Source: Chrysomallon squamiferum (taxonomy: Eukaryota > Animalia > Mollusca). Taken from it: 64,000 nt of DNA. Both the position numbers and the translations under genes were made by a program. A model generated the notes under the pieces. It was not told the DNA's origin. It saw only the letters and a list, made by a program, of their open reading frames with translations, and did no database searches. Where the stretch lies: the NCBI GenBank assembly GCA_012295275.1, contig CM022675.1, forward strand, positions 14,012,001 through 14,076,000, written 5' to 3'. Below, in pieces: positions 10,937-45,910 of the stretch (position 1 is the first letter of the stretch; every line of letters begins with the position of its first letter).

Positions 10937-10937
<1 letters not shown>

Positions 10938-12369: not shown

Positions 12370-12370
12370 C

Positions 12371-12423
<53 letters not shown>

Positions 12424-13845: not shown

Positions 13846-13892
<47 letters not shown>

Positions 13893-15430: not shown

Positions 15431-16426
15431 AATTATTAGATTTACATAATTTAATGGTCCAGTTCAGAAAACAAACCATACATTTTTGCAGGTCAGCCTT
15501 TTTCGAAAATGTTCTTGTCCGGATAGGTATGTATTCGTCAAGAAGTATGACAAAATTGTTATCATTATAATGTTTCCTTTGATAGTTTGTAAACTGACAC
15601 ATTTTTGTTTCCATTGATCATAAATAAACAATTTAAAGCGGTTTAGGTACTGTCTGATACCTGAAATAAGCAAAACAAAACACACACTAATTATTGTTCC
15701 CTCAGACTATTATAATCATCCTTGTATTGGCCATTACTTATCTTAATATTGTAAAATAATGCTGATGTCAAAATCCGGAGCATCTATGTGTCATTAGATC
15801 ACACTGTTAAAAATACTTGTTAAAACATCTATAGCTGTAATCAGTAAATACTGTTCAGACAAATTCAATTATACTGTAAGCTGCTATATCTGTACACACA
15901 GAAAAAAAAAATACTCAACCCGTCTTTTCTGTGTTTCAAATACTGTTTCTATATTTATTAAATACATATGTAATTCCAGGTAAAACACTTCGACAAATTA
16001 TACATTGAAGTTGTGAATTATAAAAATGTATTTACTCTATTTTACTTTAGGATTGGAGATAGCTAACATATATCTAATATTTTTCTGTAAAACACTGATA
16101 GCTGAACAACATGGAAACATGCATATAAATACAGAGACAGTGCATATAAACATACATACCTGTGCGTAAATTTAGTACATACACAGAACACATACATACA
16201 CACAGATTTACATTCACACATGCATTATACAGATATACACAAATACGTTGAGAGTGTGTGTATGTCATATTTCTAGATATAGATAAAAACTGTTGTTTTT
16301 GTGTTTCAAAAACAGCTGCTACCTTTAATAATTATATCTAATTATGAGAATTTTGCAGGTAAAAGTATTGTCGAAAGTATGCACTGAAGTTGTGAATTAT
16401 AAAAATGTAATTACTCTGTTTCACAG

Positions 16427-19253
16427 CGGGACAACAGGCAGCAAACGGATCTACTCCTGTATCTACACAAATAGCAGATGACGATGTATCCAGTAAGAGA
16501 AACTGGAAGTTTTCTCTTCTCCACATGTTTAATAGATAACAGAATATAGAGTAGTCTTTAGTATTTTTCTGTCACAAACTGTGACCTCAAAAACATAGAA
16601 ACATGGACCTAAATACACAGACAAAACAAATAAACTTAAATACCTGTACCTACATTCAGCACATACATAGAACACATACATAGAGATACATATATATATG
16701 TAGCATTCATTACACAGATGTACACACAAATGTATTCACAGAGAGACACAGTTTATGTATGTTAAACTGCATCCTGTCATATTTCTAAATATAAATACAA
16801 AAAAAAAACAGTTTTTCGTGTTTATGAAACCGAACCTGCATTGAATAATAATATCTGATTCTCAGAATTTGGCAGTTAAAAACATTTTCACAAATTATGC
16901 ACTGAAGTTGTGAATGATAAAAAAATAATTGATTCTGTTTCCCTGCAGGACAACTGCTGACAGACGAATTTAATCATGCTTCTACAGAAATAGAAGATAA
17001 CTGCGAATCCGGTAATTTGAAAATTGAATTTTTATCTTTTCTACATATTTAATAAAAAACACACAGAATAATCAGTGGTCAGTATACTTTTTCTGTCACA
17101 CACTGTGTCCTGAACAACATAGAACGTGCACATAAATGCATACACACGGTACATATAAACAGACACACATGCACCTACACTTAGCACATACACCGAACAC
17201 ATACATTACCATACACATAAATGCAGACATATATTACACAGCCATACGCACATATGTTGAAGCAGAGACACTGTATATATATGTTAAACTGCATCCTGTC
17301 GTATCTCTACATATAGCTAAAGACTGTTGATTTTGTGTTTCAGAAACAGCTACTACCTTTAATAATTATATCTAAATCTCAGAAGTTTGCAGTTAAAAAC
17401 ATGTTACGAAATTATTCATTGCATTTTGAATTATAAAAATGTATTCACTGTGTTCCACTGCAGAACAACGACCAGCAGACGTATCCGATTCTGATTCTAA
17501 TCAAATAGAAGACAACTCTGAAACAGGTAATTTAAAAACTGAAAGTTTTCATTCTCTACATCTTTAATACATAACAGATTACAGAGTAGTCTTTAGTATT
17601 TTTCTGACACACATTGTGACCTAACCAACATCGAAACATGCAGTGAAATACACGGACACAAAATATAAAAACTTATATACCTGTACCTATATTTAGCACA
17701 TACACAGAATACATACACACAAACACATATAGATACAGACATGCATTACACAGAGGTGAACACAAATTTGTTAAACCGCATAGAGTTATATCTCTACACA
17801 TAGATAAACTTAGTTTTCTTGTTTTTAAGAAACTGTTTCTGTATTTATTAAATATACCTAATTTCAGGTAAAACACTTCGACAAATTATACATTGAAGTT
17901 GTGAATTATAAAAATGTATTTACTCTATTTTACTTTAGGATTGCAGCTAGCTAACATAAATCTAAACCTTTATACTCAAAGAGGAGACAGAGATGCATCC
18001 AGTAAGTTAGAAAGATAAATTTTTCACATCTCTAAGAAAACACAGTAGTCATTAGTATTTTTATGTCACACACTGTAACCTGAATAACATAGAAAGGTGC
18101 ATATAAATACACAGACAAGGAATATATAATTGATAATAGAATACATTAGTATTTTCATCTCAAATACTCTGACCTGAACAACAAATAAATGTGCACATAA
18201 ATACATAGACACGGTACATACAGACTTACATGCCTGTACCTACACTCAGCATATACACATAACACATACATAGACACACATATATACATGCAGACATATA
18301 TTACACAAACATACACACATGGTGTGTGTATGTTAAACTCCACACTTTCATATCTCTACATAGAAAAAAGGTTCATTTTGTGTTTCCAAAACAGCTACTA
18401 CATATAATAATCATATCTAATTCTGAGAAATTTGACGGTTGAAAACATGCATTGAAGGTGTGATTTACAAAACAGCATTTACTCTGTTTCACAGCAGGAC
18501 AACAGGCAGCAGACATATCTGATCCTGATTCTACACAAATAGCAGATAACGATGTATCCAGTAAGATAAACTGAAAGTTTGCTCTTCTCCACGTTTAATA
18601 GATAACAGAATACAGATTAGTCTTTAGCATTTTTCTGTGACACACTCTGACCTGAACAACATAAAAACGTGACTAAATACATACACACTACATGTAAACA
18701 CACATAGCTGTACCTACACTTCCCACATACACAGAGAACATACACAGACACACATATACATGCAGACATATATTATACAGACATTCACACAAACATGTCC
18801 AGACAGAGACACGCTGTGTATATGTTAAAATGCATCCTGTCATATCTCTACATATAGATAAAAACTGTTTTTCTTGTTATAAAAACAGCTACTATATTTA
18901 ATAGTAAAATCTAATTCTGAGAATTATGAGGTAAAAACATTTTTAGAAATTATGCACTGAAGTTGTGAATTATAAAAATGTAATTACTCTGTTTCACAGC
19001 AGGACAACAGGCAGCAGACATATCTCATCCCGCTTCTACACAAATAACAGATAACGATGTATCCAGTAAGTTAAAAACTGAAATTTTCTCTTCTCTACAA
19101 GTTTTATAGCTAACAGAGTACAGTTTAGTCTTTAGTATTTTTCTGTGGAACTGATCTGATAAACATAGAAACATGGACCTAAATACACAGACACAAAACA
19201 TATAAATTTAAATACCTGTACCTACATTTAGCACATACATAACACACATACAT

Positions 19254-19284
<31 letters not shown>

Positions 19285-22200
19285 CAGGCATGTACTATTC
19301 AGAAGTATACACATATTTATTCACGCAGAGACACAGTGTATGAACGTCAAACAGATTACTGTCATATCTCAACACATAAAAAAACATTTTTCTGTTTAAC
19401 AAACTGCTACTACATTTAATAATTATATCTTATTCTCACAATTTTGGAGGTAAAAACATTTTACAAAATCATGTATTGAATTTTGAATTATAAAAATGTA
19501 TTTACTGTTTCACTGCAGGACAGCTGCCAGCAGACATATCTTATTCTGATTCTACTCAAACAGTAGATAACTGTGACTCAGGTAAGTTGAAAACTGAAAG
19601 TTTTCTTTCTCTACATGATTAATAAATAACAGAAAACACAGTAGTCATTAGTAATTTTATGTCACACACTGTAACCTGAATAACAAAGAAAGGTGCATAT
19701 AAATACACAGACAAGGAATATATAAACACACATACCTGTACCACAAAATCACATATATAAAACACTTACATAGACACACATATACATGCAGACATGTATT
19801 ACAGAGACAAACACACAAATACATTCAGACACAGACACATTATGTGTATGTTAAATTCTATGCTATCATATCTCTACATATAGAAAAATCTTGGTCGTTT
19901 TGTGTTTCAAAAACAACTATTACATTTAATAATTATATCTAATTCTCAGAATTTTGCAGGTTAAAATATTTTCAGAAATTATGCACTGAAGTTCTGAATT
20001 ATAAAAGTATTTACTCTTTCTCACTGCAGGACAACAGCCATCAAAGATATCACATTCCGGTCCTACACAAATACAAGATAACGATGTATCTGGTAAGCAA
20101 AAAACTGAAAGTTTTCTCTTCTGTATATATTTCAAAGATTACAGCATACAGAGTAGTCATTAATATTTTTCTGTAAAACACTGCTAGCTGAACAACATGG
20201 AAAAATGCATATAAATACAGAAACACAGTGCATATAAACATACATACCTGTGCGTAAATTTAGTACATACACAGAACACATACATACACACAGATTTACA
20301 TTCACACATGCATTATACAGATATACACAAATATGTTGAGAGTGTGTGTATGTCATATTTCTAGATATAGATAAAAACTGTTGTTTTTGTGTTTCAAAAA
20401 CAGCTGCTACCTTTAATAATTATATCTAATTCTGAGAATTTTGCAGGTAAAAATATTTTCGAAAGTATGCACTGAAGTTGTGAATTATAAAAATGTAATT
20501 ACTCTGTTTCACAGCGGGACAACAGGCAGCAAACGTATCTACTCCTGTATCTACACAAATAGCAGATGACGATGTATCCAGTAAGATAAACTGGAAGTTT
20601 TCTCTTCTCTACATGTTTTATAGATAACAGAATACAGAGTAGTCTTCAGTATTTTTCTAGCACAAACTGTGACCTGAAAAACATAGAAACATGGACCTAA
20701 ATACACAGACAAAACAAATAAACTTAAATACCTGTACCTACATTCAGCACATACATAGAACACATACATAGAGATACATACATATATGTAGCATTCATTA
20801 CACAGACGTACACACAAATGTACTCACAGAGAGACACAGTTTATGTATGTTAAACTGCATCCTGTCATATTTCTAAGTATAAATAAAAAAACCCAGTTTT
20901 TCGTGTTTATGAAACCGAACCTGCATTCAATAATAATATCTGATTCTCAGAATTTGGCAGTTAAAAACATTTTCACAAATTATGCACTGAAGTTGTGAAT
21001 GATAAAAAAATAATTGATTCTGTTTCACTGCAGGACAACTGCCGACAGACGAATTTAATCATGCTTCTACAGAAATAGAAGATAACTGCGAATCCGGTAA
21101 TTTGAAAATTGAATTTTTATCTTCTCTACATATTTAATAAAAAAAAAACACAGAATAATCAGTGGTCAGTATACTTTTTCTGTCACACACTGTGTCCTGA
21201 ACAACATAGAACGTGCACATAAATGCATACACACGGTACATATAAACAGACACACCTGCACCTACACTTAGCACATACACCGAACACATACATTACCATA
21301 CACATAAATGCAGACATATATTGCACAGCCATACGCACATATGTTGAAGCAGAGACACGGTGTTTTTATGTTAAACTGCATCCTGTCGTATCTCTACATA
21401 TAGCTAAAAACTGTTGTTTATGTGTTTCAGAAACAGCTACTACCATTAATAATTATATCTAAATCTCAGAAGTTTGCAGGTAAAAACATGTTACGAAATT
21501 ATTCATTGCATTTTGAATTATAAAAATGTATTCACTGTGTTTCACTGCAGGACAACGACCAGCAGACGTATCCGATTCTGATTCTAATCAAATAGAAGAC
21601 AACTCTGAAACAGGTAATTTAAAAACTGAAAGTTTTCATTCTCTACATCTTTAATACATAACAGATTACAGAGTAGTCTTTAGTATTTTTCTGACACACA
21701 TTGTGACCTAACCAACATCGAAACATGCAGTGAAATACACGGACACAAAATATAAAAACTTATATACCTGTACCTATATTTAGCACATACACAGAATACA
21801 TACACACAAACACATAGATACAGACATGCATTACACAGAGGTAAACACAAATTTGTTAAAGTGCATAGTGTTATATCTCTACACATAGATAAACACAGTT
21901 TTCTTGTTTTTAAGAAACTGTTTCTGTATTTATTAAATATACCTAATTTCAGGTAAAACACTTCGACAAATTATACATTGAAGTTGTGAATTATAAAAAT
22001 GTATTTACTCTATTTTACTTTAGGATTGCAGCTAGCTAACATAAATCTAAACCTTTATACTCAAAGAGGAGACAGAGATGCATCCAGTAAGTTAGAAAGA
22101 TAAATTTTTCACATCTCTAAGAAAACACAGTAGTCATTAGTATTTTTATGTCACACACTGTAACCTGAATAACATAGAAAGGTGCATATAAATACACAGA

Positions 22201-25200
22201 CAAGGAATATATAATTGATAATAGAATACATTAGTATTTTCATCTCAAATACTCTGACCTGAACAACAAATAAATGTGCACATAAATACATAGACACGGT
22301 ACATACAGACTTACATGCCTGTACCTACACTCAGCATATACACATAACACATACATAGACACACATATACATGCAGACATATATTACACAAACATACACA
22401 CATGGCGTGTGTATGTTAAACTCCACAGTGTCATATCTCTACATAGAAAAAAACGTTCACTTTGTGTTTCCAAAACAGCTACTACATATAATAATCATAT
22501 CTAATTCTGAGATGTTTGAAGGTTAAAAACATCTTTAGGAAATATGCATTGAAGTTGTGAATTACAAAAAAGCATTTACTCTGTTTCACAGCAGGACAAC
22601 AGGCAGCAGACATATCTCATCCCGCTTCTACACAAATAGCAGATAATTATGTATCCAGTAAGTTAAAAACTGAAATTTTCTCTTCTCTACAAGTTTTATA
22701 GCTAACAGAATACAGTTTAGTCTTTAGTGGAACTGATCTGATAAACATAGAAACATGGACCTTAATACACAGACACAAAACATATAAACTTACATACCTG
22801 TACCTACATTTAGCACATACATAACACACATACATACAGGCATATACTATTCAGAAGTATACACATATTTATTCACGCAGAGACACAGTGTATGAACGTC
22901 AAACAGATTACTGTCATATCTCAACACATAGAAAAAAACATTTTTCTGTTTAACAAACTGCTACTACATTTAATAATTATATCTTATTATCACAATTTTG
23001 GAGGTAAAAAACATTTTACAAAATCATGTATTGAATTTTGAATTATAAAAATGTATTTACTGTTTCACTGCAGGACAGCTGCCAGCAGACTTATCTTACT
23101 CTGATTCTACTCAAACAGTAGATAAGTGTGCCTCAGGTAAGTTGAAAACTGAAAGTTTTCTTTCTCTACATGATTAATAAATAACAGAAAACACAGTAGT
23201 CATTAGCACTTTTATGTCACACACTGTGACCTGAATAACATAGAAAGGTGCATATAAATACACAGACAAGGAATATATAAACACACATACCTGTACCACA
23301 ATAAGAACATATACAGAACACTTACATAGACACACATATACATGCAGAGATGTATTACAGAGACATACACGCAAATACATTCACACACAGACACATTGTG
23401 CGTATTTTAAACTCTATGCTATCATACCTCTACATATAGAAAAGTATTGGTCGTTTTGTATTTCAAAAACAGCTATTACATTTAATAATTATATCTAATT
23501 CTCAGAATTTTGCAGGTTAAAATATTTTCAGAAATTATGCACTGAAGTTCTGAATTATAAAATGTATTTACTCTTTTTCACTGCAGGACAACAGCCATCA
23601 AAGGTATCAAATTCAGGTCCAACACAAATACAAGATAACGATGAATCTGGTAAGTATAAAACGGAAAGTTTTCTCTTCTGTATATATTTTATAGATTACA
23701 GCATACAGAGTAGTCATTAATATTTCTCTGTAGGACACTGCTAGCTGAACAACATGGAAACCTGAACATACATATAGAGAGACAGTGCATATAAAAATAC
23801 ATACCTGTGCGTAAATTTAGTACATACACATGACACATACATACACAGATTTACATTCCTACATGCATTATACAGATATACACACAAATATGGGGACCGT
23901 GTGTGTATGTTAAAGTGCATCATGTCATAGTTCTAGATATACATAAAAACTGTTGATTTTGTGTTTCAAAAACAGCTGCTATCTTTAATAATTATATCTA
24001 ATTCTGCGAATTTTGCAGGAAAAAATATTTTTAGAAATTATGCATTGAAGTTGTGAATTATAAGAATGTAATTACTCTGTTTCACAGCGGGACAACAGGC
24101 AACAAACATATCTCATTCCGGATCTACTCCAGCAGGAGATAACTCTGTATCCAGTAAGTTACAAACTTAAAGTTTTCTCTTCTGTACGTGTTTAACAGGT
24201 AACAGAATACACAGTAGTGACTAGTATTCTCCTTTCACACACTGTCACCTGAGAAACGTAGCAACGAGCATATATATATACACAGACACGGTCCATATAA
24301 ACACACATACCTGTACCTGGACTTAGCACATACAGAGAACACACAGATACACACACATATACATCCAGGCGTGCTTTGCACAGTCAAACCCGAAATACAT
24401 TCAGTGAGAGACACAGATATGTATGGTCAACTGCATGTTGTCATATCTCTACATACAAATTAAAGCAATTATTGCTACATGTTTAAGCCAATATATTGAA
24501 CGTTTTTACGTATTGTGCATTGACGGTGTGAATTATAAAAATAATTTACTCTGTTTCACAGCAGGAGCAAAGTCAGCAGACATATCTCATTCCGGATCTA
24601 AACAAAGAGGAGATAACGATGTATCCAGTAAGTTATAAACTTAAAGTTTTCTCTTCTGTATATGATTAACAGGTAACAGAATACACAGTAAACATTAGTA
24701 TTTTTCTGTGACACACTGTCATCTCAGAAACGAAGAATCGTGCATAAAAATACTTAGGCACCGTCCTTATAAACAGACATGTCTGCACCTAGACTTAGCA
24801 CATACACAGAACACATAGATACACACTCATATACATGCAACGTGCATTGCAAAGTCATACCCGAAATATATTCAGACAGAGAAAAATGCAGGTAAGAACA
24901 ACTGCATGCTCTCTTATTTCTACATACAAATTTGAAAAGGTGATCTCTCTTTGAACAACTGCTACTACATTTAATAATTACTGCTACATGTTTACGCAAA
25001 TATATCCAAAATATTTAGGAATTATGAATTGAATTGGTGAATTATAAAAAGTATTTACTCTGTTTCACAGCAGCGCCACAGTCAGCAAGCATATCTCATT
25101 CCGGATCTTTTCAAATAGGAGATAACTTTGAATCCAGTAAGTTGAAAACTGAAAGTTTTCTCTTCTGTACATGTTTAACAGTTAACAGAATACACAGTAG

Positions 25201-28200
25201 TGATTAGAATTTTTCTTTAACACACTGTCACCTCAGCAATGTAGAAACGTGCATACAAATGAATGGACACAGTCCATATAAACATATACATGTGTAACTA
25301 GACTCAGCACATGCACAGAACACTTACAAGCAGACATCCATTAGAGAGACATACACGAGAACATATTCAGACAGAGACACGGAGTATGTATGTTAAACTT
25401 CATATTTCTACATATAGATTGAAATAGGTTTTGTGTTTGAAAAATTGCTACTACGTTTAATAATTATATCTAATTCCAAGAATTTTGGAGGTAAATATTT
25501 TTTTAGAAATTATTCATTGAAGTTGTAAATAATTAAAGAGTACTTACGCTCTTTCACAGCAGGAGAACAGGCAGCAAGTGTATCTCATTCCGGATCCAAA
25601 CAAATAGGAGATAATTATGTATCCGGTAAGTTATAAACTGATAGTTTTCTCTTCCATACATGTCTTATAGGTAACATAATACACAGTGGTCATCTGTATT
25701 TTCATCTCTCAAAATGTGACCTGAGCAACGCAGAAACGTGCACGTAAATACACAAACACGGTACACATAAACATGTAAACTTATACGCATACGTAACACA
25801 TACACAGAACACATAGAAGCACACGCCTATACATGCAGAGGTGCATTCCACAGTCATACCCGAAATATATTCAGACGGAGACACTGTATGTAAGTTAAAC
25901 TGCATGTTGTCATGCCTCTACATAAGCAATAAAATGGTTTCTATATTTGAAAAACAGCTTATAGATTTAATAATTATTACGGAAATATGTCCAACATTTC
26001 TACGTATTATGCATTGAGGGTTCAAACTATACAATGTATTTAATCTGTTTCACAGCAGGATCAAAGTCAGCAATCATATCTCATTCCGGATCTACTCCAG
26101 CAGGAGATAACTCTGTATCCAGTAAGTTACAAACTTAAAGTGTTCTTTTCTGTACGTGTTTAACAGGTAACAGAGTACACAGTAGTGATTAGTATTCTCC
26201 ATTCACACACTGTCACCTGAGAAACGTAGCAACGAGCATATATATATGCACAGACACGGTCCATATAAACACACATACCTGTACCTGGACTTAGCACATA
26301 CAGGGAACACATAGATACACACACATATACATCGAGACGTGCTTTGCACAGTCAAACCCGAAATACATTCAGTGAGAGACACAGGTATGTATGATCAACT
26401 GCATGTTGTCATATCTCTACATACAAATTAAAGCAATTATTGCTACATGTTTAAGCCAATATATTGAACGTTTTTACGTATTGTGCATTGACGGTGTGAA
26501 TTATAAAAATAATTTACTCTGTTTCACAGCAGGAGCAAAGTCAGCAGACATATCTCATTCCGGATCTAAACAAAGAGGAGATAACGATGTATCCAGTAAG
26601 TTATAAACTTAAAGTTTTCTCTTCTGTATATGATTAACAGGTAACAGAATACACAGTAAACATTAGTATTTTTCTGTGACACACTGTCATCTCAGAAACG
26701 AAGAATCGTGCATAAAAATACTTAGGCACCGTCCTTATAAACAGACATATCTGTACCTAGACTTAGCACATACACAGAACTCATAGATACACACTCATAT
26801 ACATGCAACGTGCATTGCAAAGTCATACCCGAAATATATTCAGACAGAGAAAAAGGCAGGTAAGAACAACTGCATGCTCTCTTATTTCTACATACAAATT
26901 TGAAAAGGTGATCTCTCTTTGAACAACTGCTACTACATTTAATAATTACTGCTACATGTTTACGCAAATATATCCAAAATATTTAGGAATTATGAATTGA
27001 ATTGGTGAATTATAAAAAGTATTTACTCTGTTTCACAGCAGCGCCACAGTCAGCAAGCATATCTCATTCCGGATCTTCTCAAATAGGAGATAACTTTGTA
27101 TCCAGTAAGTTGAAAACTGAAAGTTTTCTCTTCTGTACATGTTTAACAGTTAACAGAATACACAGTAGTGATTAGAATTTTTCTTTAACACACTGTCACC
27201 TCAGCAATGTAGAAACGTGCATACAAATGAATGGACACAGTCCATATAAACATATACATGTGTAACTAGACTCAGCACATGCACAGAACACTTACAAGCA
27301 GACATCCATTAGAGAGACATACACGAGAACATATTCAGACAGAGACACGGAGTATGTATGTTAAACTTCATATTTCTACATATAGATTGAAATAGGTTTT
27401 GTGTTTGAAAAATTGCTACTACGTTTAATAATTATATCTAATTCCAAGAATTTTGGAGGTAAATATTTTTTTAGAAATTATTCATTGAAGTTGTAAATAA
27501 TTAAAGAGTACTTACGCTCTTTCACAGCAGGAGAACAGGCAGCAAGTGTATCTCATTCCGGATCCAAACAAATAGGAGATAATTATGTATCCGGTAAGTT
27601 ATAAACTGATAGTTTTCTCTTCCATACATGTCTTATAGGTAACATAATACACAGTGGTCATCTGTATTTTCATCTCTCAAAATGTGACCTGAGCAACGCA
27701 GAAACGTGCACGTAAATACACAAACACGGTACACATAAACATGTAAACTTATACGCATACGTAACACATACACAGAACACATAGAAGCACACGCCTATAC
27801 ATGCAGAGGTGCATTCCACAGTCATACCCGAAATATATTCAGACGGAGACACTGTATGTAAGTTAAACTGCATGTTGTCATGCCTCTACATAAGCAATAA
27901 AATGGTTTCTATATTTGAAAAACAGCTTATAGATTTAATAATTATTACGGAAATATGTCCAACATTTCTACGTATTATGCATTGAGGGTTCAAACTATAC
28001 AATGTATTTAATCTGTTTCACAGCAGGATCAAAGTCAGCAATCATATCTCATTCCGGATCTACTCCAGCAGGAGATAACTCTGTATCCAGTAAGTTACAA
28101 ACTTAAAGTGTTCTTTTCTGTACGTGTTTAACAGGTAACAGAGTACACAGTAGTGATTAGTATTCTCCATTCACACACTGTCACCTGAGAAACGTAGCAA

Positions 28201-31200: not shown

Positions 31201-34200
31201 ATCTGTACCTAGACTTAGCACATACACAGAACTCATAGATACACACTCATATACATGCAACGTGCATTGCAAAGTCATACCCGAAATATATTCAGACAGA
31301 GAAAAAGGCAGGTAAGAACAACTGCATGCTCTCTTATTTCTACATACAAATTTGAAAAGGTGATCTCTCTTTGAACAACTGCTACCACATTTAATAATTA
31401 CTGCTACATGTTTACGCAAATATATCCAAAATATTTAGGAATTATGAATTGAATTGGTGAATTATAAAAAGTATTTACTCTGTTTCACAGCAGCGCCACA
31501 GTCAGCAAGAATATCTCATTCCGGATCTTCTCAAATAGGAGATAACTTTGTATCCAGTAAGTTGAAAACTGAAAGTTTTCTCTTCTGTACATGTTTAGCA
31601 GTTAACAGAATACACAGTAGTGATTATAATTTTTCTGTCACAAACTGTCACCTGAGCTATTGAACAATGTCCCTAGAAATACATAGAAACGGTCGATAGA
31701 AACAGACATACCTGTACCTAGACTTAGCACATGCACAGAACATGTAGATGCACACACATATACATGCAGACATGCATTGCACAGTCATACCCGAAATATA
31801 TTCAGACAGAGACACAGGTATGTATGTTAAACTGCTTGGTGTCCCGTCTCTACATACAGCTTAAAACAAAGTGTTTTGTTTTTGAACAACTACTACTGCA
31901 TTTTATAATTATTGCTACAAGTTTACGCAAATATATCCAAGATTTTTAGGAATTATGCATTGAATTGGTGAATTATAAAAAGTATTTACTCTGTTTCACA
32001 GCAGCGCCACAGTCAGCAAGAATATCTCATTCCGGATCTTCTCAAATAGGAGATAACTTTGTATCCAGTAAGTTGAAAACTGAAAGTTTTCTCTTCTGTA
32101 CATGTTTAGCAGTTAACAGAATACACAGTAGTGATTAGAATTTTTCTTTTACACACTGTCACCTCAGCAATGTAGAAACGTGCATACAAATGAATGGACA
32201 CAGTCCATATAAACATATACATGTGTAACTAGACTCAGCACATGCACAGAACACTTACAAGCAGACATCCATTAAAGAGATATACGAAAAAAATATATTC
32301 AGACAGAGACACGGAGTATGTATTTAAACTGCATAATGTCATTTCTCTACATATAGATTGAAATAGGTTTTTTGTTTGAAAAATTGCAAACTACGTTTAA
32401 TAATTATATCTAATTCCAAGAATTTTTGGAGGAAAACATTTTTTTAGAAATTATTCATTGAAGTTGTAAATAATTAAAAGTATTTACGCTATTTCACAGC
32501 AGGAGAACAGGCAAAGATATCTCATTCCGGATCCAAACAAAAAGGAGATAATTATGTATCCAGTAAGTTATAAACTGATAGTTTTCTCTTCCATACATGT
32601 TTTATAGGTAACATAATACACAGTGGTCATCTGTTTTTTCATGTCTCAAAATGTGACCTGACCAACGCAGAAACGTGTGCAAATGAACAAATACACGGTA
32701 CACATAAACATACAAACCTATACACATACGTAACACATACACAGAACACGAACATACACACATATATATTCAAACAGAGGGCATTCACAGTCATGCCCGA
32801 AATATATTCAGACGTCATACTACATATAGATTTAAATGCATTTTCATGCCTTTTCAAAGCAATAAAATTCTGTTATTTGAAAAATAGCTAATTAGATTTA
32901 ATAATTATTAAGGTTAAAATGTTGAAAATTTTATGTATTTGAATTGAGGGTTCAAACTATAAAAATGTATTTAATCTGTTTAATAGAAGGGAAAAGTCAG
33001 CAATCATATCTGATTCCGGATCCACTCCAAATAGGACATAACTATGTATCCAGTAAGTTAACAAACTGAACGTTTTTTTTCTGTACGTGTTTAGATAACA
33101 GGATACACAGTAGTGATTAGTAGTTCCATATAAATGTCACATAGACACGGTCATATATATATAAACAGACACGGTCCATATAAACACACATACCTGTACG
33201 TATAGTTGGTAATACACAGAACACATAGATGCACACACTTAGACATGCAGACGAGCATTTCACAGTCACACACGAAATATATTCAAACAGAGATAAGGTA
33301 TGTATGTTACACTGCATGTTGTCATACCTCTACATATAGATTCATAAGACGTTCTTCATGTTTGAAAACGTCCTACTACAAATTAAAGCAATTATTACGC
33401 AAATATATCCAACATTTTTACGCAAATATATCCAACATTTTTACGAATTATGCATTTAGGCTGTGAATTATAAAAAGTATTTACTCTGTTTCACAGAAGG
33501 ACCAAATTCAGCAAGCATATCTCATTCCGGATCTACTCAAACAGGAGATAACTATGTATCCAGTAAGTTAGAAACTTAAAGTTTTCTCTTCTGTACATGT
33601 TTAACAGGTAACATAGTACACAGTAGTGTTTAATATTTGTGTGAAACACACACTGTCACCTGAGCTATTGAACAATGTCCCTACAAATACATAGAAACGG
33701 TCGATAGAAACAGACATACCTGTACCTAGACTTAGCACATGCACAGAACATGTAGATGCACACACATATACATGCAGACATGCATTGCACAGTCATACCC
33801 GAAATATATTCAGACAGAGACACAGGTATGTATGTTAAACTGCTTGGTGTCCCGTCTCTACATACAGCTTAAAACAAAGTGTTTTGTTTTTGAACAACTA
33901 CTACTGCATTTTATAATTATTGCTACAAGTTTACGCAAATATATCCAAGATTTTTAGGAATTATGCATTGAATTTGTGAATTATAAAAAGTATTTACTCT
34001 GTTTCACAGCAGGATCAAAGTCAGTAAACATATCTAATTCCGGATCTACTCAAATAGGAGATAACCGTGTTACCAGTAAGTTAAAAACTGAAAGTTTTTT
34101 CTTGTCTACATGTTTAACAGGCAACAGAATACACAGTAGTGGTTAGTATTTTTCTGTCACACACTGTCACCTGAGCAATGTAGAAACCTGCATATAAATA

Positions 34201-37200
34201 CACAGACACGGTCCATATAAACCTACACATCTATAACTAGACTTAGTACATGCACAGAACACATACACGCAGACACGCATTAAACAGATATACACGAAAA
34301 CATATAATGACAGAGACACTGAATATGTATTTAAACTGCATAATGTCATATCTCTACATACAGATTGAAATATTTTTCTTGTATTTGAAAAATTCCAAAC
34401 CACGCTGAATAATTATAACTAATTCCCAGAATTTTACAGGTGAAAACATTTTTAGAAATTATGCATTGAAGTTGTAAATAATAAAAAGTATTTACTCTAT
34501 TTCACAGCAGGAGAAGAGGCAGCAAAGATATCTCATTCCCGATCCACTCAAAAAGGAGATAACTATGTATTCAGTAAGTTTTCTCTTCTGTACAGGTTTA
34601 ATAGGTTGCAGAATACACAGTGGTCGTCAGTTTTTTTCTGTCACAAACAGTGACCTGACCAACGCAGAAATGTGCACATGAACACATACACACTTACGTG
34701 TAAACATACATACCTGCATACACATGCACACATGCACTACACCAGGGGTGGCCAAACTTTTTTACCAGAGGGCCAAATTTGCAACTTTCTTGCCACTGGA
34801 GGGCCGGATTAAATGAAATTTACGTAAAATTTGTCGTAACTGGTTGCCGTCTTTATTAAAATATATATTATTGTAGTAGAATAACAATAAATAACACCAT
34901 CTTGTTTACACTTGTATTTAATAAAAGGTTTATATATCAATGAGATAAATGCAACTGTCCACAATTTTGAACAAGCTTTTTAAAGTCTGGAGTAAAACTA
35001 GTTGTCGAAACTTTCATAATTGCTTGTAAATTTGCATCTGACAATACTGATCTGTTTTTGACTTTGTTTGATTTAAGCATGAAAAAGTCTGTTCACAAAT
35101 ATAAGTTGATCCAAATATACACAGCATCCTAGCAGCAAAACCTCGTAGATTGATAAACTTTTCAGCAGGCAAATATTTGAAAAATTCTACCAAAGGCATA
35201 TTCCTAAACTTCATTTTCAGCTCATTATTAGCTTGTAGATCTATTAGTTCCAGCTGAAGAACATCAGGGGCTGTCTCAATTTCTGTACTGAAGGGTGAAA
35301 CAAGTATATTAAATGATGAATCCATTACTCTGAAGTCTGAAAATCTTCTTTGGAATTCTTGTTTCAAGATGCAGAGTTGATTGCTGTATTTTTCAGCAAG
35401 TTTACTATCTACTGTTGCCTTCCTTAGCAAAGAAAAATGAATAAAATTACATTCTGATATCTGTTTGGCAAAAAAGTGAGAGCTTTGCCTCAAAAGCTTT
35501 TCACTTTGGTGTACATATCATGCACAAATAATCCTTTTCCTTGCAATTCCAAATTTAGAGAATTGAGCTTTTCAAACATTTCAGTGGCAAACACAAAATC
35601 ACAAAGCCAGTAATCATTTTTCATCTTCTCTATAAAATCACATTTCATTTGTTTGATATCAAGGAAAAGGAGAATTTCGTCTCTTAGTTCAAAGACTCTT
35701 CTTAGAACTTTCCCATGACTAAGCCACCGAACACTATTGTGATATAGCACATCTTTATATTCAGTCTCAATATCATCCAGTAATGTCTTGAATTGTCTGT
35801 GTGATAATGGTCTGGATCTGAGTAGATTAACTACTTCAACTACAGGACGTATCACATGATTAAAATCCAGAGCTGACTTGCATAAACTTTCTTGATGAAT
35901 GATACAATGAAATTTCCATATTTCATGCTGAGGACAGTTTTCTTTAATCTTCTTTTGTAGGAGGCTAATCATGCCTTTGTTTTTTCCAGTTAGAGCAGGT
36001 GCACCGTCAGTAGTGATACTCACCAATTTATTCCACGGCAGGCCAGCCTCCTCCACACACTTTATTACACATTTACACAGGTCTTCCCCCGTAGTTGTGC
36101 CTTTTAAAGGTTCAACTGATAACAACTCCTCTGAAATTGTAAAATCTGACTTGATACCACGTATAAATATCATGAGTTGTGCAATGTCCTGAACATCATT
36201 GCTTTCATCCAGAGCTAATGAAAACCACATGAAATCAGTGCAAGCAGTGTGAAGCTGTTGGGACAAATCTTTGCTGATATCTTGTACCTTCTCATAACTG
36301 TATTCCTTGATAGTGCAATATTCTCAAATGTATTCTGTGCTTCTGGACAAAGTATGCGTGCCGCATCCACAATGCAGTCTTTTACAAATTCTCCATCAGA
36401 AAAAGGTTTTTGCATTGTGCAATTTTGTAACTAATATAAAAACTAGCTTCTGTTGCTGAAATGTGAATGGATTGTGTCTTTGAAAAAAGCGACTGTTGCT
36501 TTATTAGATTTTTCACCATATCAGCAGCTTTATTAACCTTTTGCTCTGTTGATAGTCCTTCACTGTATCCAGCGTGTTTTGTATTATAGTGTCTTTTCAA
36601 ATTATATTCTTTAAAAACTGATATTCCCTCATTACAAATTAAACACTGCTTTCCCATTTACCGCAGTGAAAAAATATTGGTATGTCCATTCCTCCTTAAA
36701 AACTCGGCATTCATCATCTACTTTTCTCTTTTTCGTTGGAGACATTTTAACTGATAAGGTAGAGAAAAAAATAAAATTATTGCTGCTTCTGAGAAGAAAA
36801 TCCAATGTGCGTATTGTCTCTTACATGCTCAGTAAAATACTGAAAGTCAAAGCTGGAACAATTAACTTCCTGATTTCTTACAAAGTAGGCTAGTAGGCCA
36901 AAGGGATGTGAAAAAGAGCACATACAGGCTATGTTAGCTACTTACGTCATGGTTGGCAGACTGTTCTAAAAATAACGCTGCAAGGGCATTTATTCTAAAA
37001 ATAACAACGCTTGCCACAAGATACTGCTAGTAGCAGCCAGCGCTGTTGCACTGCTTGTTCACAGTGGTAAATATGGTGCTTGGAAAAAAACAAGGCAAGG
37101 TGTTTGGCGGGCCGGATGAAACAGGACTGGGGGCCGGATGCGGCCCGCGGGCCGTAGTTTGGCCACCACTGCACTACACGAACATACACAAATATATATT

Positions 37201-40200
37201 CAAATAGAGGCTCACAGTATGTATGCTAATCTGCATACTGTCATATGCTACATATAGATTGAAATATTTTTCGTTTTTCAAAAATTACTATTCTGTTTAA
37301 TAAAAATAGCTAATTCTCAGAATTCTGAAGGTTAAAACATTGAAAACATTATGTATTGAATTACTCATTAATAAAAAATGTGTTTAATCTGTTTAATAGA
37401 AGGAGAAGAGTCAGTCAAGATATCTGATTCCGGATCCACTCAAATAGGAGATAACTATGTATCCAGTAAGTTAAGAACTGAACGTTTTTTCTTCTGTACA
37501 TAGATAGCAGGATACACGGTAGTGATTAGTAGTTGCATATAAATACATAGACACGGTCTATATAAACAGACATACTTGTACGTATAGTTGGTAATACACA
37601 GAACACACAGATGCACACACTTAGACATGCAGACGAGCATTTCACAGTCACACACGAAATATATTCAAACAGAGATAAGGTATGTATGTTACACTGCATG
37701 TTGTCATACCTCTACATATAGATTCATAAGACGTTCTTCATGTTTGAAAACGTCCTACTACATTTAGCAATTATTACGCAAATATATCCAACATTTTTAC
37801 GCAAATATATCCAACATTTTTACGAATTATGCATTTAGGCTGTGAATTATAAAAAGTATTTACTCTGTTTCACAGAAGGACCAAATTCAGCAAGCATATC
37901 TCATTCCGGATCTACTCAAACAGGAGATAACTATGTATCCAGTAAGTTAGAAACTTAAAGTTTTCTCTTCTGTACATGTTTAACAGGTAACATAGTACAC
38001 AGTAGTGTTTAGTATTTGTCTGAAACACACACTGTCACCTGAGCTATTGAACAATGTCCCTACAAATACATAGAAACGGTCGATAGAAACAGACATACCT
38101 GTACCTAGACTTAGCACATGCACAGAACATGTAGATGCACACACATATACATGCAGACATGCATTGCACAGTCATACCCGAAATATATTCAGACAGAGAC
38201 ACAGGTATGTATGTTAAACAGCTTCGTGTCCTGTCTCTACATACAGATTAAAACAAAGTGTTTTGTTTTTGAACAACTACTACTGCATTTTATAATTATT
38301 GCTACAAGTTTACGCAAATATATCCAAGATTTTTAGGAATTATGCATTGAATTTGTGAATTATAAAAAGTATTTACTCTGTTTCACAGCAGGATCAAAGT
38401 CAGTAAACATATCTAATTCCGGATCTACTCAAATAGGAGATAACCGTGTTAGCAGTAAGTTAAAAACTGAAAGTTTTTTCTTGTCTACATGTTTAACAGG
38501 CAACAGAATACACAGTAGTGGTTAGTATTTTTCTGTCACACACTGTCCCCTGAGCAATGTAGAAACCTGCATATAAATACACAGACACGGTCCATATAAA
38601 CATACACATCTATAACTAGACTTAGTACATGCACAGAACACATACACGCAGACAAGCATTAAACAGATATACACGAAAACATATAATGACAGAGACACTG
38701 AATATGTATGTTAAACTGCATAATGTCATATCTCTACATATAGATTGAAATATTTTTCTTGGATTTGAAAAATTCCAAACCACGCTGAATAATTATAACT
38801 AATTCCCAGAATTTGACAGGTGAAAAGATTTTTAGAAATTATGCATTGAACTTGTAAATAATAAAAAGTATTTACTCTATTTCACAGAAGGAGAAGAGCC
38901 AGCAAAGATATCTCATTCCGGATCCACTCAAAAAGGAGATAACTATGTATCCAGTAAGTTTTCTCTTCTGTACATGTTTAATAGGTTGCAGAATACACAG
39001 TGGTCGTCAGTTTTTTTCTGTCACAAACAGTGACCTGACCAACGCAGAAATGTGCACACGAATACATACACACTTACATATAAACATACAAACCTGTACC
39101 TCCACATAGCACATACACACGCATACCCATGCACACATGCACTACAAGAACACACACAAATATATATTCAAACAGAGGATCACAGTATGTATCCTAAACT
39201 GGATACTGTCATATGCTACATATAGATTGAAATATTTTTCGTTTTTCAAAAATGACTACTCTGTTCAATAATTATAGCTAATTCTCAGAATTCTGAAGGT
39301 TAAAACATTGAAAACATTGAAGTACTCATTAATGAAAAAGTATTTAATCTGTTTAACAGAAGGAGAAGAGTCAGTCAACATATCTGATTCCGGATCCACT
39401 CAAATAGGAGATAACTATGTATCCAGTAAGTTAAGAACTGAACGTTTTTTCTTCTGTACATAGATAGCAGGATACACAGTAGTGATTAGTTTGCATATAA
39501 ATACATAGACACGGTCCATATAAACAGACATACTTGTACGTATAGTTGGTACATACACAGAACACATAGATGCACACACTTAGACATGCAGACGAGCATT
39601 TCACAGTCACACACGAAATATATTCAAACAGAGATAAGGTATGTATGTTAAACTGCATGTTGTCATACCTCTACATACAGATTCATAAGACGTTGTTCAT
39701 GTTTGAAAACGTCCTACTACATTTAGCAATTATTGCTACATTTTTACGCAAATATATCCAACATGTTTACGAATTATGCATTTAGGCTGTGAATTATAAA
39801 AAGTATTTACTCTGTTTCACAGAAGGACCAAATTCAGCAAGCATATCTCATTCCGGATCTACTCAAACAGGAGATAACTATGTATCCAGTAAGTTAGAAA
39901 CTTAAAGTTTTCTCTTCTGTACATGTTTAACAGGTAACATAATACACAGCAGTGTTTAGTATTTGTCTGAAACACACTCTGTCACCTGAGCTATTGAACA
40001 ATGTCCCTACAAATACATAGAAACGGTCGATAGAAACAGACATACCTGTACCTAGACTTAGCATATGCACAGAAGACGTAGATGCACACACATATACATG
40101 CAAACGTGCATTGCACAGTCATACCCGAAATATATTCAGACAGAGACACAGGTATGTATGTTAAACTGCTTCGTGTGCTGTCTCTACATACAGATTAAAA

Positions 40201-42264
40201 CAAAGTGTTTTGTTTTTGAACAACTACTACTGCATTTTATAATTATTGCTACAAGTTTACGTAAATACATCCAAGATTTTTAGGAATTATGCATTGAATT
40301 TGTGAATTATAAAAAGTATTTACTCTGTTTCACAGCCGGACCAAAGTCAGTAAACATATCTAATTCTGGATCTACTCTAGTAGGAGATAACCATGTTACC
40401 AGTAAGTTAAAAACTGAAAGTTTTTTCTTGTCTACATGTTTAACAGGCAACAGTTTCACACACTTTCCCCTGAAAAATGTAGATAGGTGTAAAAAATACA
40501 CAGACTTGGTCCATATAAACATACACATCTATATCTAGACTTAGCACATACACAGAACACATACATGTAGACAGGGATTACACAGATTTACACGAAAACA
40601 TATTCAGACATAGATATAGAGTATATATGTTAAACTGCATACTGTCATATCAATACATATATATTGAAATATTTTTTTATTTTTTAAATATTCCTAGTAC
40701 ATTTAATTAATCTAATTCCGAGAAGTTTCCAGGTATAATGATTTTTAGAAATTATGCTTTGAAGTTGTAAATAATAAAAAGTATGTACTCTGTTTCATAG
40801 TAGTAGAACAGGCAGCAAAGATATCTCATTCCGGATCCACTCAAAAAGGAGATAACTATGTATCCAGTAAGTTTTGTTTTCTGTGCACTTTTAGTATGTA
40901 ACAGAATAAAATGTGGTCACCATTATTTTTTGTCACAAACTGTGACCTGAAGAACGCAGAAACATGGACATATATATACATAGGCACGGTTTATCTAAAA
41001 GACGTAGCACATATACATGCATGCACATGCAGACATGCTTTACACGAACATGCAAGCAGATATATTCACACGGAGGCTCATAGTATGTATACTAAACTGT
41101 CATATGCTACATATAGATTGAAATATGTTTTGTGTTTGAAAAATACTACTGTTTCATAATTATAGCTAAATCTCAGAATTCTGAGGTTAAACTTTTTAAA
41201 AGTCGTGCATTGACGTTCTCATGTATAAAAAGTATTTTCTCTGTTTCACAGAAGGAAAAGAGTCAGTAAACGTATGTGATTCCGGATCCACTCAAGTAGG
41301 AGATAACTATATAACCAGTAAGTTAAAAAGTGAACGTTTTTTCTTCTGTGCATGTTTAATAGATAGCAGAATACACAGTAGTGATTAGTAGTTTTCTGCC
41401 ACACACTGTCACCTGAGGAATGTAGACACGGTTCATATATAGATATACATGTTTAACTAGACTTAGCACAGACCACATAGATGCAGACACGCATTACACA
41501 GACATACACGAAAACATATTCAGACAGAGACACAGGGTATATATGTTAAAGTGTTTACTGTCATATCAATACTTATAGATTGAAATATGTGTTTGTGTTT
41601 GAACCATTCCTACTATGTTTAATTATTACGTCTAATTCCGAGAATTTCCAGGTAAACACATTTTCAGAAATTATGCATTGAATTTGTAAATATTATAAAG
41701 TATTTACTCTGTTTCACAGTAGTAAAACAGACATCAGACGTATCTCATTCCGGATCCACTCAAATAGGAGATAACTATGTAACCAGTAAGTTTTCTCTGA
41801 TGTACATTTTTAATAGTAACAGAGTACACAGTGGTTATTAATATTTTTTTTCACAAACTGTGACCTGAGCAACGCGGAAAAGTACACATAAATTCATACG
41901 AACGGTACATCTAAAAATGCAAACCTGTACCTACACGTAGCACATACACGGGTACATACATGCAGACATGCATTACACGAACATACACACAGATATATTC
42001 AAACACGGACTCACAGTATGTATTCTAAACTGCATACTGTCGTATGCTACATATAGACTGAAATATTTTTTTTGTGTTTCAAAAAATACTACTCTGTTTA
42101 ATAATTATAGCTAATTCTCAGAATTCTGCAAGTTATTCCATTTTAAAAATTATGTATTGAAGTTCTCATTTATAAAGAATATTTTCTCTGTTTCACAGCA
42201 GGAGAAGAGTCAGTAAACGTATCTCATTCCGGATCCACTCAAATAGGTCATAACTATGTAACCA
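16427..42264 (+). CDS. 48 tandem 63/66-nt symmetric phase-1 exons encoding a 21-22-aa S/T/Q/D/G-rich repeat (consensus ~ TGxQSAxISHSGSTQIGDNYVS); putative N-terminal region of the Deltex-like protein
   Basis: Exons read by eye: 16427-16492, 16949-17011, 17464-17526, 17939-18001, 18495-18560, 19000-19065, 19519-19581, 20030-20092, 20515-20580, 21034-21096, 21551-21613, 22024-22086, 22592-22657, 23074-23136, 23587-23649, 24088-24153, 24562-24627, 25071-25136, 25560-25625, 26056-26121, 26530-26595, 27039-27104, 27528-27593, 28024-28089, 28501-28566, 29012-29077, 29523-29588, 30012-30077, 30508-30573, 30982-31047, 31491-31556, 32002-32067, 32500-32562, 32987-33052, 33497-33562, 34010-34075, 34508-34573, 37400-37465, 37876-37941, 38389-38454, 38888-38953, 39360-39425, 39823-39888, 40336-40401, 40801-40866, 41252-41317, 41720-41785, 42199-42264. 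All are bounded by AG and GTAA and are multiples of 3; I found no stop in the phase-1 frame. Confidence 0.8.
34743..37171 (-). mobile_element. Full-length hAT-superfamily DNA transposon (Buster/SPIN/GTF2IRD2-like), 2429 bp
   Basis: 16-bp TIRs CAGGGGTGGCCAAACT / CAGTGGTGGCCAAACT (1 mismatch). 8-bp TSD CACTACAC at 34735-34742 and 37172-37179. GGGCC-rich subterminal repeats. Confidence 0.96.
34937..36745 (-). pseudogene. hAT transposase, frameshifted into several pieces
   Basis: MSPTKKRKVDDECRVF; BED-like CLIC...NLKRHYNTKH; KPFSDGEFVK; SLALDESND; SITTDGAPAL; HCIIHQESLC; VRWLS; FGSTYICEQTFS. The reading frame changes several times. Confidence 0.92.
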
Positions 42265-43233: not shown

Positions 43234-43271
<38 letters not shown>

Positions 43272-43642
43272 GATAAAGCTTTGAGCTATTTGTGTCTATA
43301 AACAACAGCCACACTGTGAAATCTCCAGCATTGTTTCTTTCCTCTGCTGATTTTGGGGGATCTGTTCATACCAGACTTCAACTCTACACTTTATTTATTT
43401 GTTTCTTTGTTTGTTTATTTATTTATTTATTTTTATTTAACAATTAATTTGAATTAAGTTCAATGTTTAGACTTAGTCCCAGTTTTTTATTTCAATTTTT
43501 GGTAACGAATATCAAACTATTTACTTTCATAATTGAATTACCTTTTTATTAATGTATTAAGAATATTCCTATTTTTATTCACACCAGACATGTTTGTTTT
43601 TATTTATTATTACTATTATTTATTAAATATCGTAACTAAAAG

Positions 43643-44016
43643 CAGAAAACAGTGGAGTAAATGGCCAGGATTCAAGCAAGGAAACTAACGTCTACAAGAA
43701 TCAAAGTTCTCCAGCACAACACACACCATCCCAGCATTCAGATCATGTTAATGATGTCTGTGCAATTTGCCAGAATAAAATGTCAGATCCACTGAAACTG
43801 GAAAAATGTGGCCACAGTTTTTGTAAAGGTTGTATTGATACACAAATGAAAAACAAACCTGCTTGTCCAATCTGTGGAATGGTCTATGGTGTTCTCACTG
43901 GTAACATGCCTTCAGGAGGAAAAATGCAAGTTGATTATAGAAAGTCGGGACTTCCTGGATATGACAAAGATGGATCTTATTGTATCATGTACTCGTTTCC
44001 AGGTGGACGGCAAACT
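43643..44016 (+). CDS. DTX3L: Deltex (DTX3/DTX3L-like) E3 ubiquitin ligase, RING-HC exon plus start of DTC domain
   Basis: CAICQNKMSDPLKLEKCGHSFCKGCIDTQMKNKPACPIC (C3HC4), then YGVLTGNMP..G.M...LPGY...YSFPGGRQT. An in-frame TAA at 43633 bounds the exon. The tandem AAG/CAG acceptors are both phase 1; the donor GTAAGT at 44017 is phase 0. The symbol is a family-level assignment, not orthology. Confidence 0.92.
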
Positions 44017-44758
44017 GTAAGTACTGTACAATGTTTCTACAGTAGTTCAGTTTCTTTTCTGGTGAATATTTTCAAGCAACACATAGTACATCGCTATAAT
44101 CTTTAACGTGTTTGAAAAAAGTAAATAAATAAAAACCAAATAAAAATCATTAATGGACAAGCTCATTACTGACACTGTAAAATTTAACTAATTGGTCCAT
44201 CTGTTTTTTGCTAATATAAATAGTAGATTTAACATCATCATTCTTCTCAAAATGTAACCATCTTTACTAAGTGTAATAAGTACCCCAACTTTCTTAAATA
44301 TACAGTGAACATTCATTGTTTTTACCTTATTTTAATCTTCTTTTTTTATCATTATCAAATTGTTATTATGTTGGTCTTTTAGACATGAAAATTAGAGTAC
44401 ACTAGGGAAAATAATTACATAAATGTAGAGAGGGGATATGGGACAACTGTCATTTTCCCCTGTTTGCCTCCTCATAAATCTGTCTCTGTTCTCAATTTAA
44501 AGTTAATCATCACTGTTGGAATATTACTAAATACTGCACTTTACTTTAAACATGTGTAACAAAACTTCTAGAAACAAACATGTCACTGAGATCCTGAATG
44601 TTCCAACATTAGGTAAATGAATTTTGTATATGTTTAATTACTACTACTACTTCTACTACTACTACTACTACTAATAACAATAATAATAAAAGTTCTATTG
44701 CAAATCTTGTTGCTCTACAATTTTTTTCTACAATTCTTTTATATAAATTGTTTTTCAG

Positions 44759-44976
44759 AAAGAACATCCTAATGAAGGAAAGCGGTATTATGGGATTACC
44801 GAGTATGCATATTTACCAGATACACCAAAAGGTCGCAAAATACTTGCCATGTTACGTGTTGCTTGGGAACGAAGACTGACATTTACTATTGGAAAATCAG
44901 TAAAGAATCGACGTAATGAAGTCATAACATGGAATGACATTCATCATAAAACAAGAACGTATGTAGTCATAGACAA
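44759..44976 (+). CDS. DTX3L: Deltex-like gene, DTC domain exon
   Basis: TTTTTCAG|KEHPNEGKRYYGITEYAYLPDTPKGRKILAMLRVAWERRLTFTIGKSVKNRRNEVITWNDIHHKTRTYVVID. Donor after 44976 (GTGGGT) or after 44958 (GTATGT), both phase 2. Confidence 0.92.
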
Positions 44977-45792
44977 GTGGGTTCTCATATAATCCCTTAA
45001 AGATATAGACCATCTTAGTAGTAATAATCCATCAGCTGAACCTCACTAAATTTACCATCCAGTCTAAATGTGTTTCTTTACCTCATTAAAAGTGTTACAT
45101 TTAACATTTCTAATTTAACAGTAAAAAAATTGTGAACTTTAGATCATATACTAGTAATTATTTTAGAAATAATTTAACAGGAAAAAATTACTAAATTGAA
45201 GTTGACATGGTAACGTTGTTTTAGAAATTATTTTCTCTGTATAAATAGTGTTAGCTGTAATAATTATGTGAAACAGTATCAAAATTTAAAATTTAAATCT
45301 AGGTGTAAATGTTTTGTTGTGAAGATTAATCAGTGACATTTGTAGTGTTTATTTACCTGTTTTTTGTGCTTTGGTTTTGTTTCACTTGTGTTTACACAGA
45401 TAATGTGTTGTACAACAGAAATTACAATGGCTAACTGTTTGCCAGAAACACTGTCCAGTCGTGACTGTCCACTTCTCTTAGCCCAGAAACTTTCTATAAG
45501 CATATCAGTCTGTCCTATGCATTCATACTATATCCTACAAGTGAAATATTTGTTTGTAACTGGAGGATATTATAATATAAAGAGTTTGTATAAATGTTTA
45601 TGCATGTATATATATACTTGTTGTTTCTTTAGTATTAAAAATTTCTAAGGCAACATTAATAAAGTTTAAATTAAATGTTTATATTGTTTTCAGATTAACA
45701 GTGATTTGCTTTCAGTCAAAAATTGTTATCATACATTATATTAGTTCCGTATTTTAATATAATATTAACATATTGTTTCTCTATCTTGATAG

Positions 45793-45910
45793 GTCTGATT
45801 ATCCAGATCCTGGCTATCTAGATCGCGTGGAAGAAGAATTATCAGCCAAGGGAATCACTGAAGAAAGTATTAAGGATCCAAAGTATAAGGAACTCACAGG
45901 ATTCTTTTAG
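45793..45910 (+). CDS. DTX3L: Deltex-like gene, terminal coding exon
   Basis: TTGATAG|G-SDYPDPGYLDRVEEELSAKGITEESIKDPKYKELTGFF*, matching the YPDP.YL..V.EEL.AKGI signature of the DTC C-terminus. TAG at 45908-45910. Confidence 0.92.

Follow-up and report, generated by a model that had tools for sequence, protein, structure and literature searches.

The window analyzed here, 64,000 nt of contig CM022675.1 from the mollusc Chrysomallon squamiferum (assembly GCA_012295275.1, forward-strand positions 14,012,001 to 14,076,000), holds a tandem array of short exon-like units followed by the RING and DTC exons of a Deltex-type ligase. We favor the hypothesis, to which we assign a probability of roughly 0.63, that the array comprises 48 exon-intron copies whose frame is selected and which are likely spliced serially onto this ligase of the DTX3/DTX3L class, providing it with a predicted disordered arm that could reach about 1,045 residues. 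If so, a coding gene lies inside an apparent satellite, and repeat masking and short-read assembly would likely lose such a gene. Moreover, a mucin-style arm, selected in its frame but drifting in its residues, would have been added to a cytosolic-type ligase whose family is expanded and probably immune. The core of this hypothesis was proposed in a first-pass annotation, made by a model from the letters alone; all positions are those of the window.

Structure of the Array

A scan for AG, a segment of 63 or 66 nt, and GTAAG or GTAAT recovers 48 whole exon units at 16427-42264 (37 of 66 nt and 11 of 63 nt); with a truncated unit included, blastn and nhmmer find 49 units between 15870 and 42300. 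The first-pass annotation had given the same lengths and had described every segment as open in phase 1. Our recount finds phase-1 stops in 0 of 48 exons, as against 32 and 48 of the 48 in the other two frames, and among 887 spacer windows taken as a control 238 are open. The exons also end in A (38) or G (10), as had been noted. Acceptors are CAG in 43 exons and TAG in five, with NAGNAG at 34 of the 48, and donors are GTAAGT (40), GTAATT (4), GTAAGA (3), or GTAAGC (1). The pyrimidine tract described earlier is present but modest (0.40-0.60 pyrimidine over the 30 nt upstream of the acceptors). The units had also been called microexons; they are real short exons, but at 63-66 nt they exceed the 39-nt upper limit for micro-exons (10.1101/868786). 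Likewise, the spacer length of about 430 bp fits 46 spacers (385-505 nt) but not the remaining one, whose 2,826 nt include a hAT element of 2.4 kb.

Unit identity ranges from 57% to 100% (median 73%), several middle units being 100% alike; 36 of the 48 exon sequences are distinct and 12 are exact duplicates. The exact unit count is least certain in the near-identical middle block. The array is made up as follows:

15870..16204 (+): truncated 49th unit, with acceptor and exon start at 16051; about 109 nt lost, including the exon end and donor (nhmmer profile positions 28-229, then 338-469)
16427..23649 (+): block 1, 15 exons (10 of 63 nt, 5 of 66 nt) with a 7-8-unit higher-order duplication; peptides acidic, none with Q-I/V-G
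24088..34573 (+): block 2, 22 exons in 4-5-unit higher-order repeats, many units 99-100% alike
32987..33052 (+): compensated-indel exon, in which -1 and +1 cancel in the alignment; length still 66 nt, frame open
34743..37171 (-): decayed hAT-type DNA transposon of about 2.4 kb within a spacer, its open reading frame (ORF) in pieces
37400..42264 (+): block 3, 11 exons, all of 66 nt

The transposon is bounded by 16-nt terminal inverted repeats (15 of 16 positions match) with an 8-bp target duplication, and it matches Pfam zf-C2H2_12 (E 8e-7) and Dimer_Tnp_hAT (E 0.004).

The higher-order repeats, of 7-8 and then of 4-5 units, suggest that a single 0.5-kb exon-intron unit was multiplied through unequal crossing-over. 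With symmetric phase-1 exons, the gain or loss of units would be harmless to the frame, and copy number would be free to change.

The Ligase Exons

The remaining exons of the predicted gene are the following:

9659..9685 (+): candidate start exon, ATG at 9667, six codons, phase-1 donor CAG/GTAAGG at 9686
43643..44016 (+): RING exon, acceptor 43643 or 43646, phase 1; short linker, C3HC4 RING, and DTC positions 1-39 (Pfam zf-C3HC4 E 1.5e-10, DTC E 3.7e-5)
44759..44976 (+): DTC exon 2, DTC positions 40-106 (Pfam DTC E 1.2e-26; best PDB match human DTX3L 3pg6, E 1.3e-19)
45793..45910 (+): last coding exon, DTC positions 115-133, stop at 45908-45910

When the 48 array exons and the three RING-DTC exons are joined, they form one frame of 1,280 codons with a single terminal stop, in agreement with the earlier statement that the RING exon is compatible in phase. 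An in-frame stop lies immediately 5' of the RING exon, which lacks a usable start of its own ahead of the first zinc ligands and needs a phase-1 partner. Within the last intron (1,378 nt), no donor (GT-A/G-AG, GTAAT, or GTATG) points to a strong alternative exon, two weak sites being present. Since no array exon contains an in-frame Met, a separate start exon is needed. The best candidate, still unproven, is 9659-9685, one of two top scorers among 11 phase-1 ATG-donor candidates upstream of the array. Just 5' of it, at 9573-9615, lie GCCATCTT, GGAAGTTTCC and TTCACGGAA, which are possible YY1-, NF-kB- and STAT-like sites.

The predicted protein has the Deltex arrangement of a RING followed directly by DTC, here on three consecutive exons, and its C-terminal C3HC4 RING and DTC are as in the DTX3/DTX3L class (human DTX3L 3pg6 and invertebrate DTX3L-like proteins). 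An HC-type RING is presumably the mark of DTX3 and DTX3L. By pattern and by Pfam, the RING is of the C3HC4 (HC) and not of the H2 type, a split among Deltex RINGs that is described in PMC10340142. The predicted protein shows no RRM, KH-like, macro, or WWE module, the array peptides having no Pfam match to such families, although a further upstream exon might encode one; we accordingly file the predicted gene as DTX3/DTX3L-class and not as a DTX3L orthologue. The closest of 150 representative database hits is about 50% identical; the named ones include gastropods, bivalves, and lamprey, and mollusc and lamprey DTX3L-like proteins are about 50% identical to the window's ligase. In a midpoint-rooted tree of the query and 55 of these hits (at most 10 of them named), the query and a Potamilus protein form a pair with support 0.79. 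Ligase activity is predicted from the RING-DTC sequence. Word-based protein searches with the RING exon, which are weak, gave no match among 22 longer and two near-length candidates.

Selection on Frame and Drift of Residues

On the tree of units, the exon columns have undergone about 193 substitutions. Given the mutation spectrum of the spacers, 4.7% of changes should produce a stop, that is, 9.1 stops, and none is seen (P ~1e-4). The spacers had been said to carry indels of arbitrary length, and indeed 61 of the 86 gap runs in the 365 nt of flanking spacer columns are not multiples of three. Within the exons, gaps consist of one 3-nt deletion and one -1/+1 pair inside exon 32987-33052; uncompensated frameshifts number 0 versus about 10.5 expected (0.236 gap runs per nt x 63 nt x 61/86), although the spacer indel rate is an upper estimate, which tempers the comparison, because spacers hold simple-repeat tracts. 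The contrast between exon and spacer indels that the first-pass annotation had proposed to examine thus speaks for frame selection. Donor positions +1 to +4 show zero changes on the tree, whereas spacer columns average 3.6.

The ratio of nonsynonymous to synonymous substitution rates (dN/dS) is 1.16 by pair counts (32 distinct cores; 46 of the 48 exons used), divergence is 0.257 in exons and 0.253 in spacers, and a codon model does not reject omega = 1 (twice the log-likelihood difference, 2.9). Changes at codon positions 1, 2, and 3 number 73, 63, and 45, and the excess at the first two shrinks after allowing for base composition. With omega = 1 not rejected, positive selection on the array residues is unsupported. 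Together, the deficit of stops and frameshifts and a dN/dS near 1 indicate that splice sites and frame are kept by selection and the peptide hardly so, residue change being near-neutral.

RNA Evidence

The RNA comparison covered 40200-44100, that is, the last five array exons and the RING exon, with three RNA runs from the same organism (X2, X3, and X4); stretches without RNA cover in this interval are no evidence of silence. A search of indexed runs with 41000-46200 found no RNA run that contains this stretch; a run of unrecorded kind, X1, shares 56% of its words. The X1 pieces are 98-99% identical to the 3' array units and spacers at a depth of about 55, the single-copy depth. X1 behaves as DNA and may derive from the source sample.

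Run X4 contains array-type exons joined head to tail. A 119-nt contig (depth 43) runs from the final 44 nt of one exon through a complete 66-nt exon into the first 9 nt of another, both joints falling exactly at the predicted donor, and two 60-nt contigs (depth 14 and 28) carry a further joint of exon end to exon start. The joints map to the 40801-40866 exon, the spacer bins 40331-40723 and 40986-42819 have zero depth in X4, and none of the three joint words occurs within the window. Exon types and their order in these contigs agree with the four-unit repeat of the window to within one or two letters, and the 66-nt acceptor is the only one used. Head-to-tail contigs without spacers support real splicing of such exons, and the joining of array-type exons to each other in RNA, which the first-pass annotation had made a test of its proposal, is seen in X4.

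On RING pieces the X1 depth climbs to 685-2,594, compared with about 55 for the window's copy, which points to a multi-copy ligase with many paralogues, depth being no measure of copy number. This matches the expansion of Deltex C-terminal genes in bivalves, which average 13.1 per genome versus 3.6 in others (PMC8382680).

A number of observations weigh against the favored hypothesis. Relative to the 40801 exon of the window, the X4 joint contigs show 1-4 mismatched letters, and because of this they are, as judged from sequence, the product of an allele or a paralogue. Among the pieces listed, neither X2 nor X3 shows a head-to-tail joint, so that one of three RNA runs does; no link from an array exon to 43643/43646 is seen in any RNA contig; and no RNA piece is identical to the RING exon copy, 1-12 letters being different. 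Of the earlier claim that the array feeds a Deltex RING-DTC ligase, the RING-DTC and the compatible phase are supported, but the array-to-RING joint was not seen in the pieces listed. The 350 nt upstream of the RING in one X3 contig show no match to the five array exons among the pieces listed, which suggests that one or more expressed paralogues are built differently. An intronless genomic copy could also yield head-to-tail contigs; none is found among the X1 pieces listed. The arm (S 21%, G 10%, D 8%; net charge -56) is predicted to be disordered, but its FoldIndex of -0.06 is just slightly negative. Finally, no database protein was found to carry the array repeat in a weak search (repeat alignment against longer proteins, 7,988 scored), and nhmmer locates a relative of the unit at another, decayed gene.

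Two further elements lie in the last intron. The piece at 42975-43270 (+) ends in a 35-nt A run and has no Pfam match. Its 42975-43160 part is matched at about 91% by contigs from each of the three RNA runs, and the piece may be a transcript fragment from elsewhere that was retro-inserted here. A high-copy interspersed repeat occupies 42558-42950, with X1 depth up to 1,670.

Alternative Explanations

One alternative, which we consider unlikely, is that the repeats are RHIM- or HET-s-like amyloid signaling motifs. The array would then be an amyloid string with one motif per exon and a variable copy number, its module shared with a neighboring ankyrin gene, and would dock onto the immune amyloids of invertebrates or seed them; immune amyloid filaments would recruit the ligase, or be nucleated by it, and would be its ubiquitination targets. 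The motif Q-I/V-G-D/H-N occurs in 17 of the 48 peptides (17 of 33 in blocks 2 and 3) and resembles the GIQIGA and GVQVGD cores of RIPK1 and RIPK3 (PMC4262963). However, the defining RHIM tetrad, (V/I)-Q-(V/I/L/C)-G (PMC13506858), is found in 0 of 48, its first hydrophobic residue being absent in all, and the key hydrophobic place is K, R, T, or A in many units. Two of the 30 members compared with Pfam gave a HET-S (PF17108) match spanning profile positions 6-23 of 23, with E 0.016 and 0.06, and an amyloid class had been suspected ahead of that scan, but the scores lie under the 24.3-bit cut-off, the unrelated Eplus does better (E 0.009), and no RHIM model is listed among the Pfam matches of the array peptides. 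Searches of PDB with one peptide and two profiles (E up to 10) gave chance-level rows, with no RHIM or HET-s fibril listed. In the motif half of the exon, codon positions 1 and 2 show 56 changes against 75 predicted from the spacers (80 against 80 in the other half), but third positions are conserved too (45 against 69 expected), so the constraint may be on splicing signals. Also on the side of this explanation, a lone unit ahead of an ankyrin ORF encodes a weakly similar peptide.

RHIM and HET-s motifs resemble the array repeat in their length of about 20 residues, their Q-I/V-G and later Asn, and their unstructured setting. Known proteins of this kind contain one to three copies or several half-motifs, such as Pirk and Rudra with several RHIM-half repeats (PMC4262963), whereas the array has 48 units. 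The accessible text of PMC4262963 names no RING partner for RHIM proteins, and a literature search on Deltex and RHIM, with subscription papers mostly outside its scope, found no such protein by title or start of abstract. If this explanation were true, Deltex ligases would be linked to invertebrate amyloid immune signaling, with 36 natural motif variants to test.

The chance is similarly small that the exons are real but that this copy is silent or recently dead, or that the array ends in a transcript other than that of the RING exon. The pieces listed contain neither a bridging contig nor an exact RNA match to the RING exon, the start exon is just a candidate, the first unit is truncated, and the neighbors are decayed ankyrin ORFs, one of them with a unit relative. 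Nevertheless, 51 of 51 exons are intact in a single frame, and both the want of a strong alternative exon in the last intron and that of a usable start before the first zinc ligands argue against such a state.

We also think it improbable that the array is a diversity generator whose exons are skipped or chosen combinatorially, as in the micro-exon genes of Schistosoma or in Dscam, to yield an isoform repertoire of substrate-binding arms. Any subset of exons would stay in frame, NAGNAG acceptors are frequent, codon positions 1 and 2 change more than position 3, and array contigs appear in one of the three RNA runs. However, three serial exons in one contig rule out a one-of-many choice for that transcript, the order of neighboring exons matches the genomic repeat order, the joints use the 66-nt acceptor alone, the positional excess shrinks with base composition under an omega not distinguishable from 1, and a quarter of the exons (12 of 48) are exact duplicates. 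Dscam contains mutually exclusive clusters of duplicated exons; it shares a duplicated exon series with the array, but it includes one exon per transcript whereas the X4 joints show serial inclusion. The first-pass annotation had offered either a constitutive disordered arm or a Dscam-like repertoire. The constitutive branch fits best and the Dscam-like one conflicts with the three serial exons; exon skipping or varied subsets are not borne out, the exon order in the contigs being that of the genomic higher-order repeat.

That the array is a non-coding satellite or an assembly artefact, open by inherited chance, is very improbable: exon divergence equals spacer divergence and several middle units are identical, but the stop and indel deficits, the invariant splice sites, the RNA joints, the single-copy depth of X1 pieces across the 3' units, and the spread of unit identities (57-100%, median 73%) all contradict it.

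Comparison with Known Systems

Tandem exon arrays are known already; on the Deltex family they seemingly are not. In SmPoMuc of Schistosoma mansoni (PMC2576457), as in the array, a short exon with its flanking introns is repeated in tandem next to a unique C-terminal part, and like the window's gene it belongs to a multigene family, homogenized by unequal crossing-over or conversion. Two features of that system recur here: exon and flanking intron form one genomic unit (49 units by blastn and nhmmer), and the X4 contig, from an allele or paralogue, contains several repeat exons in one transcript. SmPoMuc differs in having a 27-bp exon in 1-kb units, with up to 20 copies that are >93% alike and encode a mucin, whereas the array has exons of 63-66 nt in 0.5-kb units, with 48 copies at a median of 73%, and a predicted intracellular ligase. 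Human disordered proteins (PMC3632108) share with the array runs of symmetric exons in the same phase, internal duplication, and encoded disorder; what is described there is a general trend, and we found no ligase or 48-copy case in the accessible text.

The architecture had been presented as undescribed for a Deltex. We agree insofar as no paper on a DTX3L with tandem repeats and exons, or on mollusc DTX3L expansion, was found in a literature search that left most subscription papers, and supplements, outside its scope, but the layout itself is known from SmPoMuc (PMC2576457) and from PMC3632108. Nor are tandem repeats of 20-22 residues peculiar to this gene: three of the 150 Deltex hits, P0027, P0086, and P0109 (the last from Gigantopelta aegis), have Ser/Thr-rich tandem repeats of 21, 22, and 20 residues with other sequence.

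Other Deltex proteins bear folded targeting modules at the N-terminus, an RRM being present in most metazoan DTX3L (10.64898/2026.04.23.720386), whereas here about 1,045 residues of exon-encoded repeat would stand instead of the RRM of DTX3L. If the exons are spliced serially onto the ligase, as we propose, the Ser/Gly/Asp-rich acidic arm would take the place of these folded modules and may serve an immunity-type ligase as a tether of variable length or as a multivalent surface for binding. A blastp comparison of the joined repeat with the 150 Deltex hits gave one low-complexity match at 19% identity, and one repeat had no usable match in the ESM Atlas. A 17-nt exon motif found at 53 metagenome loci was dismissed as chance, with 0 blastn matches to the window at E 1e-5.

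Neighborhood of the Array

The window holds one relative of the unit outside the gene, beside decayed ankyrin-repeat sequences:

49740..51120 (+): decayed ankyrin-repeat ORF with many stops and frameshifts
55746..55971 (+): lone unit relative, an exon-like piece with the same donor and the first 110 nt of the spacer, preceding a decayed ankyrin-repeat ORF
56290..58260 (+): decayed ankyrin-repeat ORF, likewise with many stops and frameshifts, and an internal 198-nt tandem repeat

The nhmmer match of the lone relative to the unit covers 55861-55971 (E 1.9e-17), whereas the similarity of its peptide is weak, 17 of 26,958 background windows scoring equally high. Another exon-like piece with a strong donor, 13707-13761, was rejected, as it has stops in phase 1 when read by eye. 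Upstream of the array, 600-2240 and 10000-14020 are a rearranged older duplicate (68-86% alike) that takes in the 13707-13761 piece, and a decayed LINE-type reverse transcriptase lies at 4967-6610 (-), with a Pfam RVT_1 match at E 6e-10.

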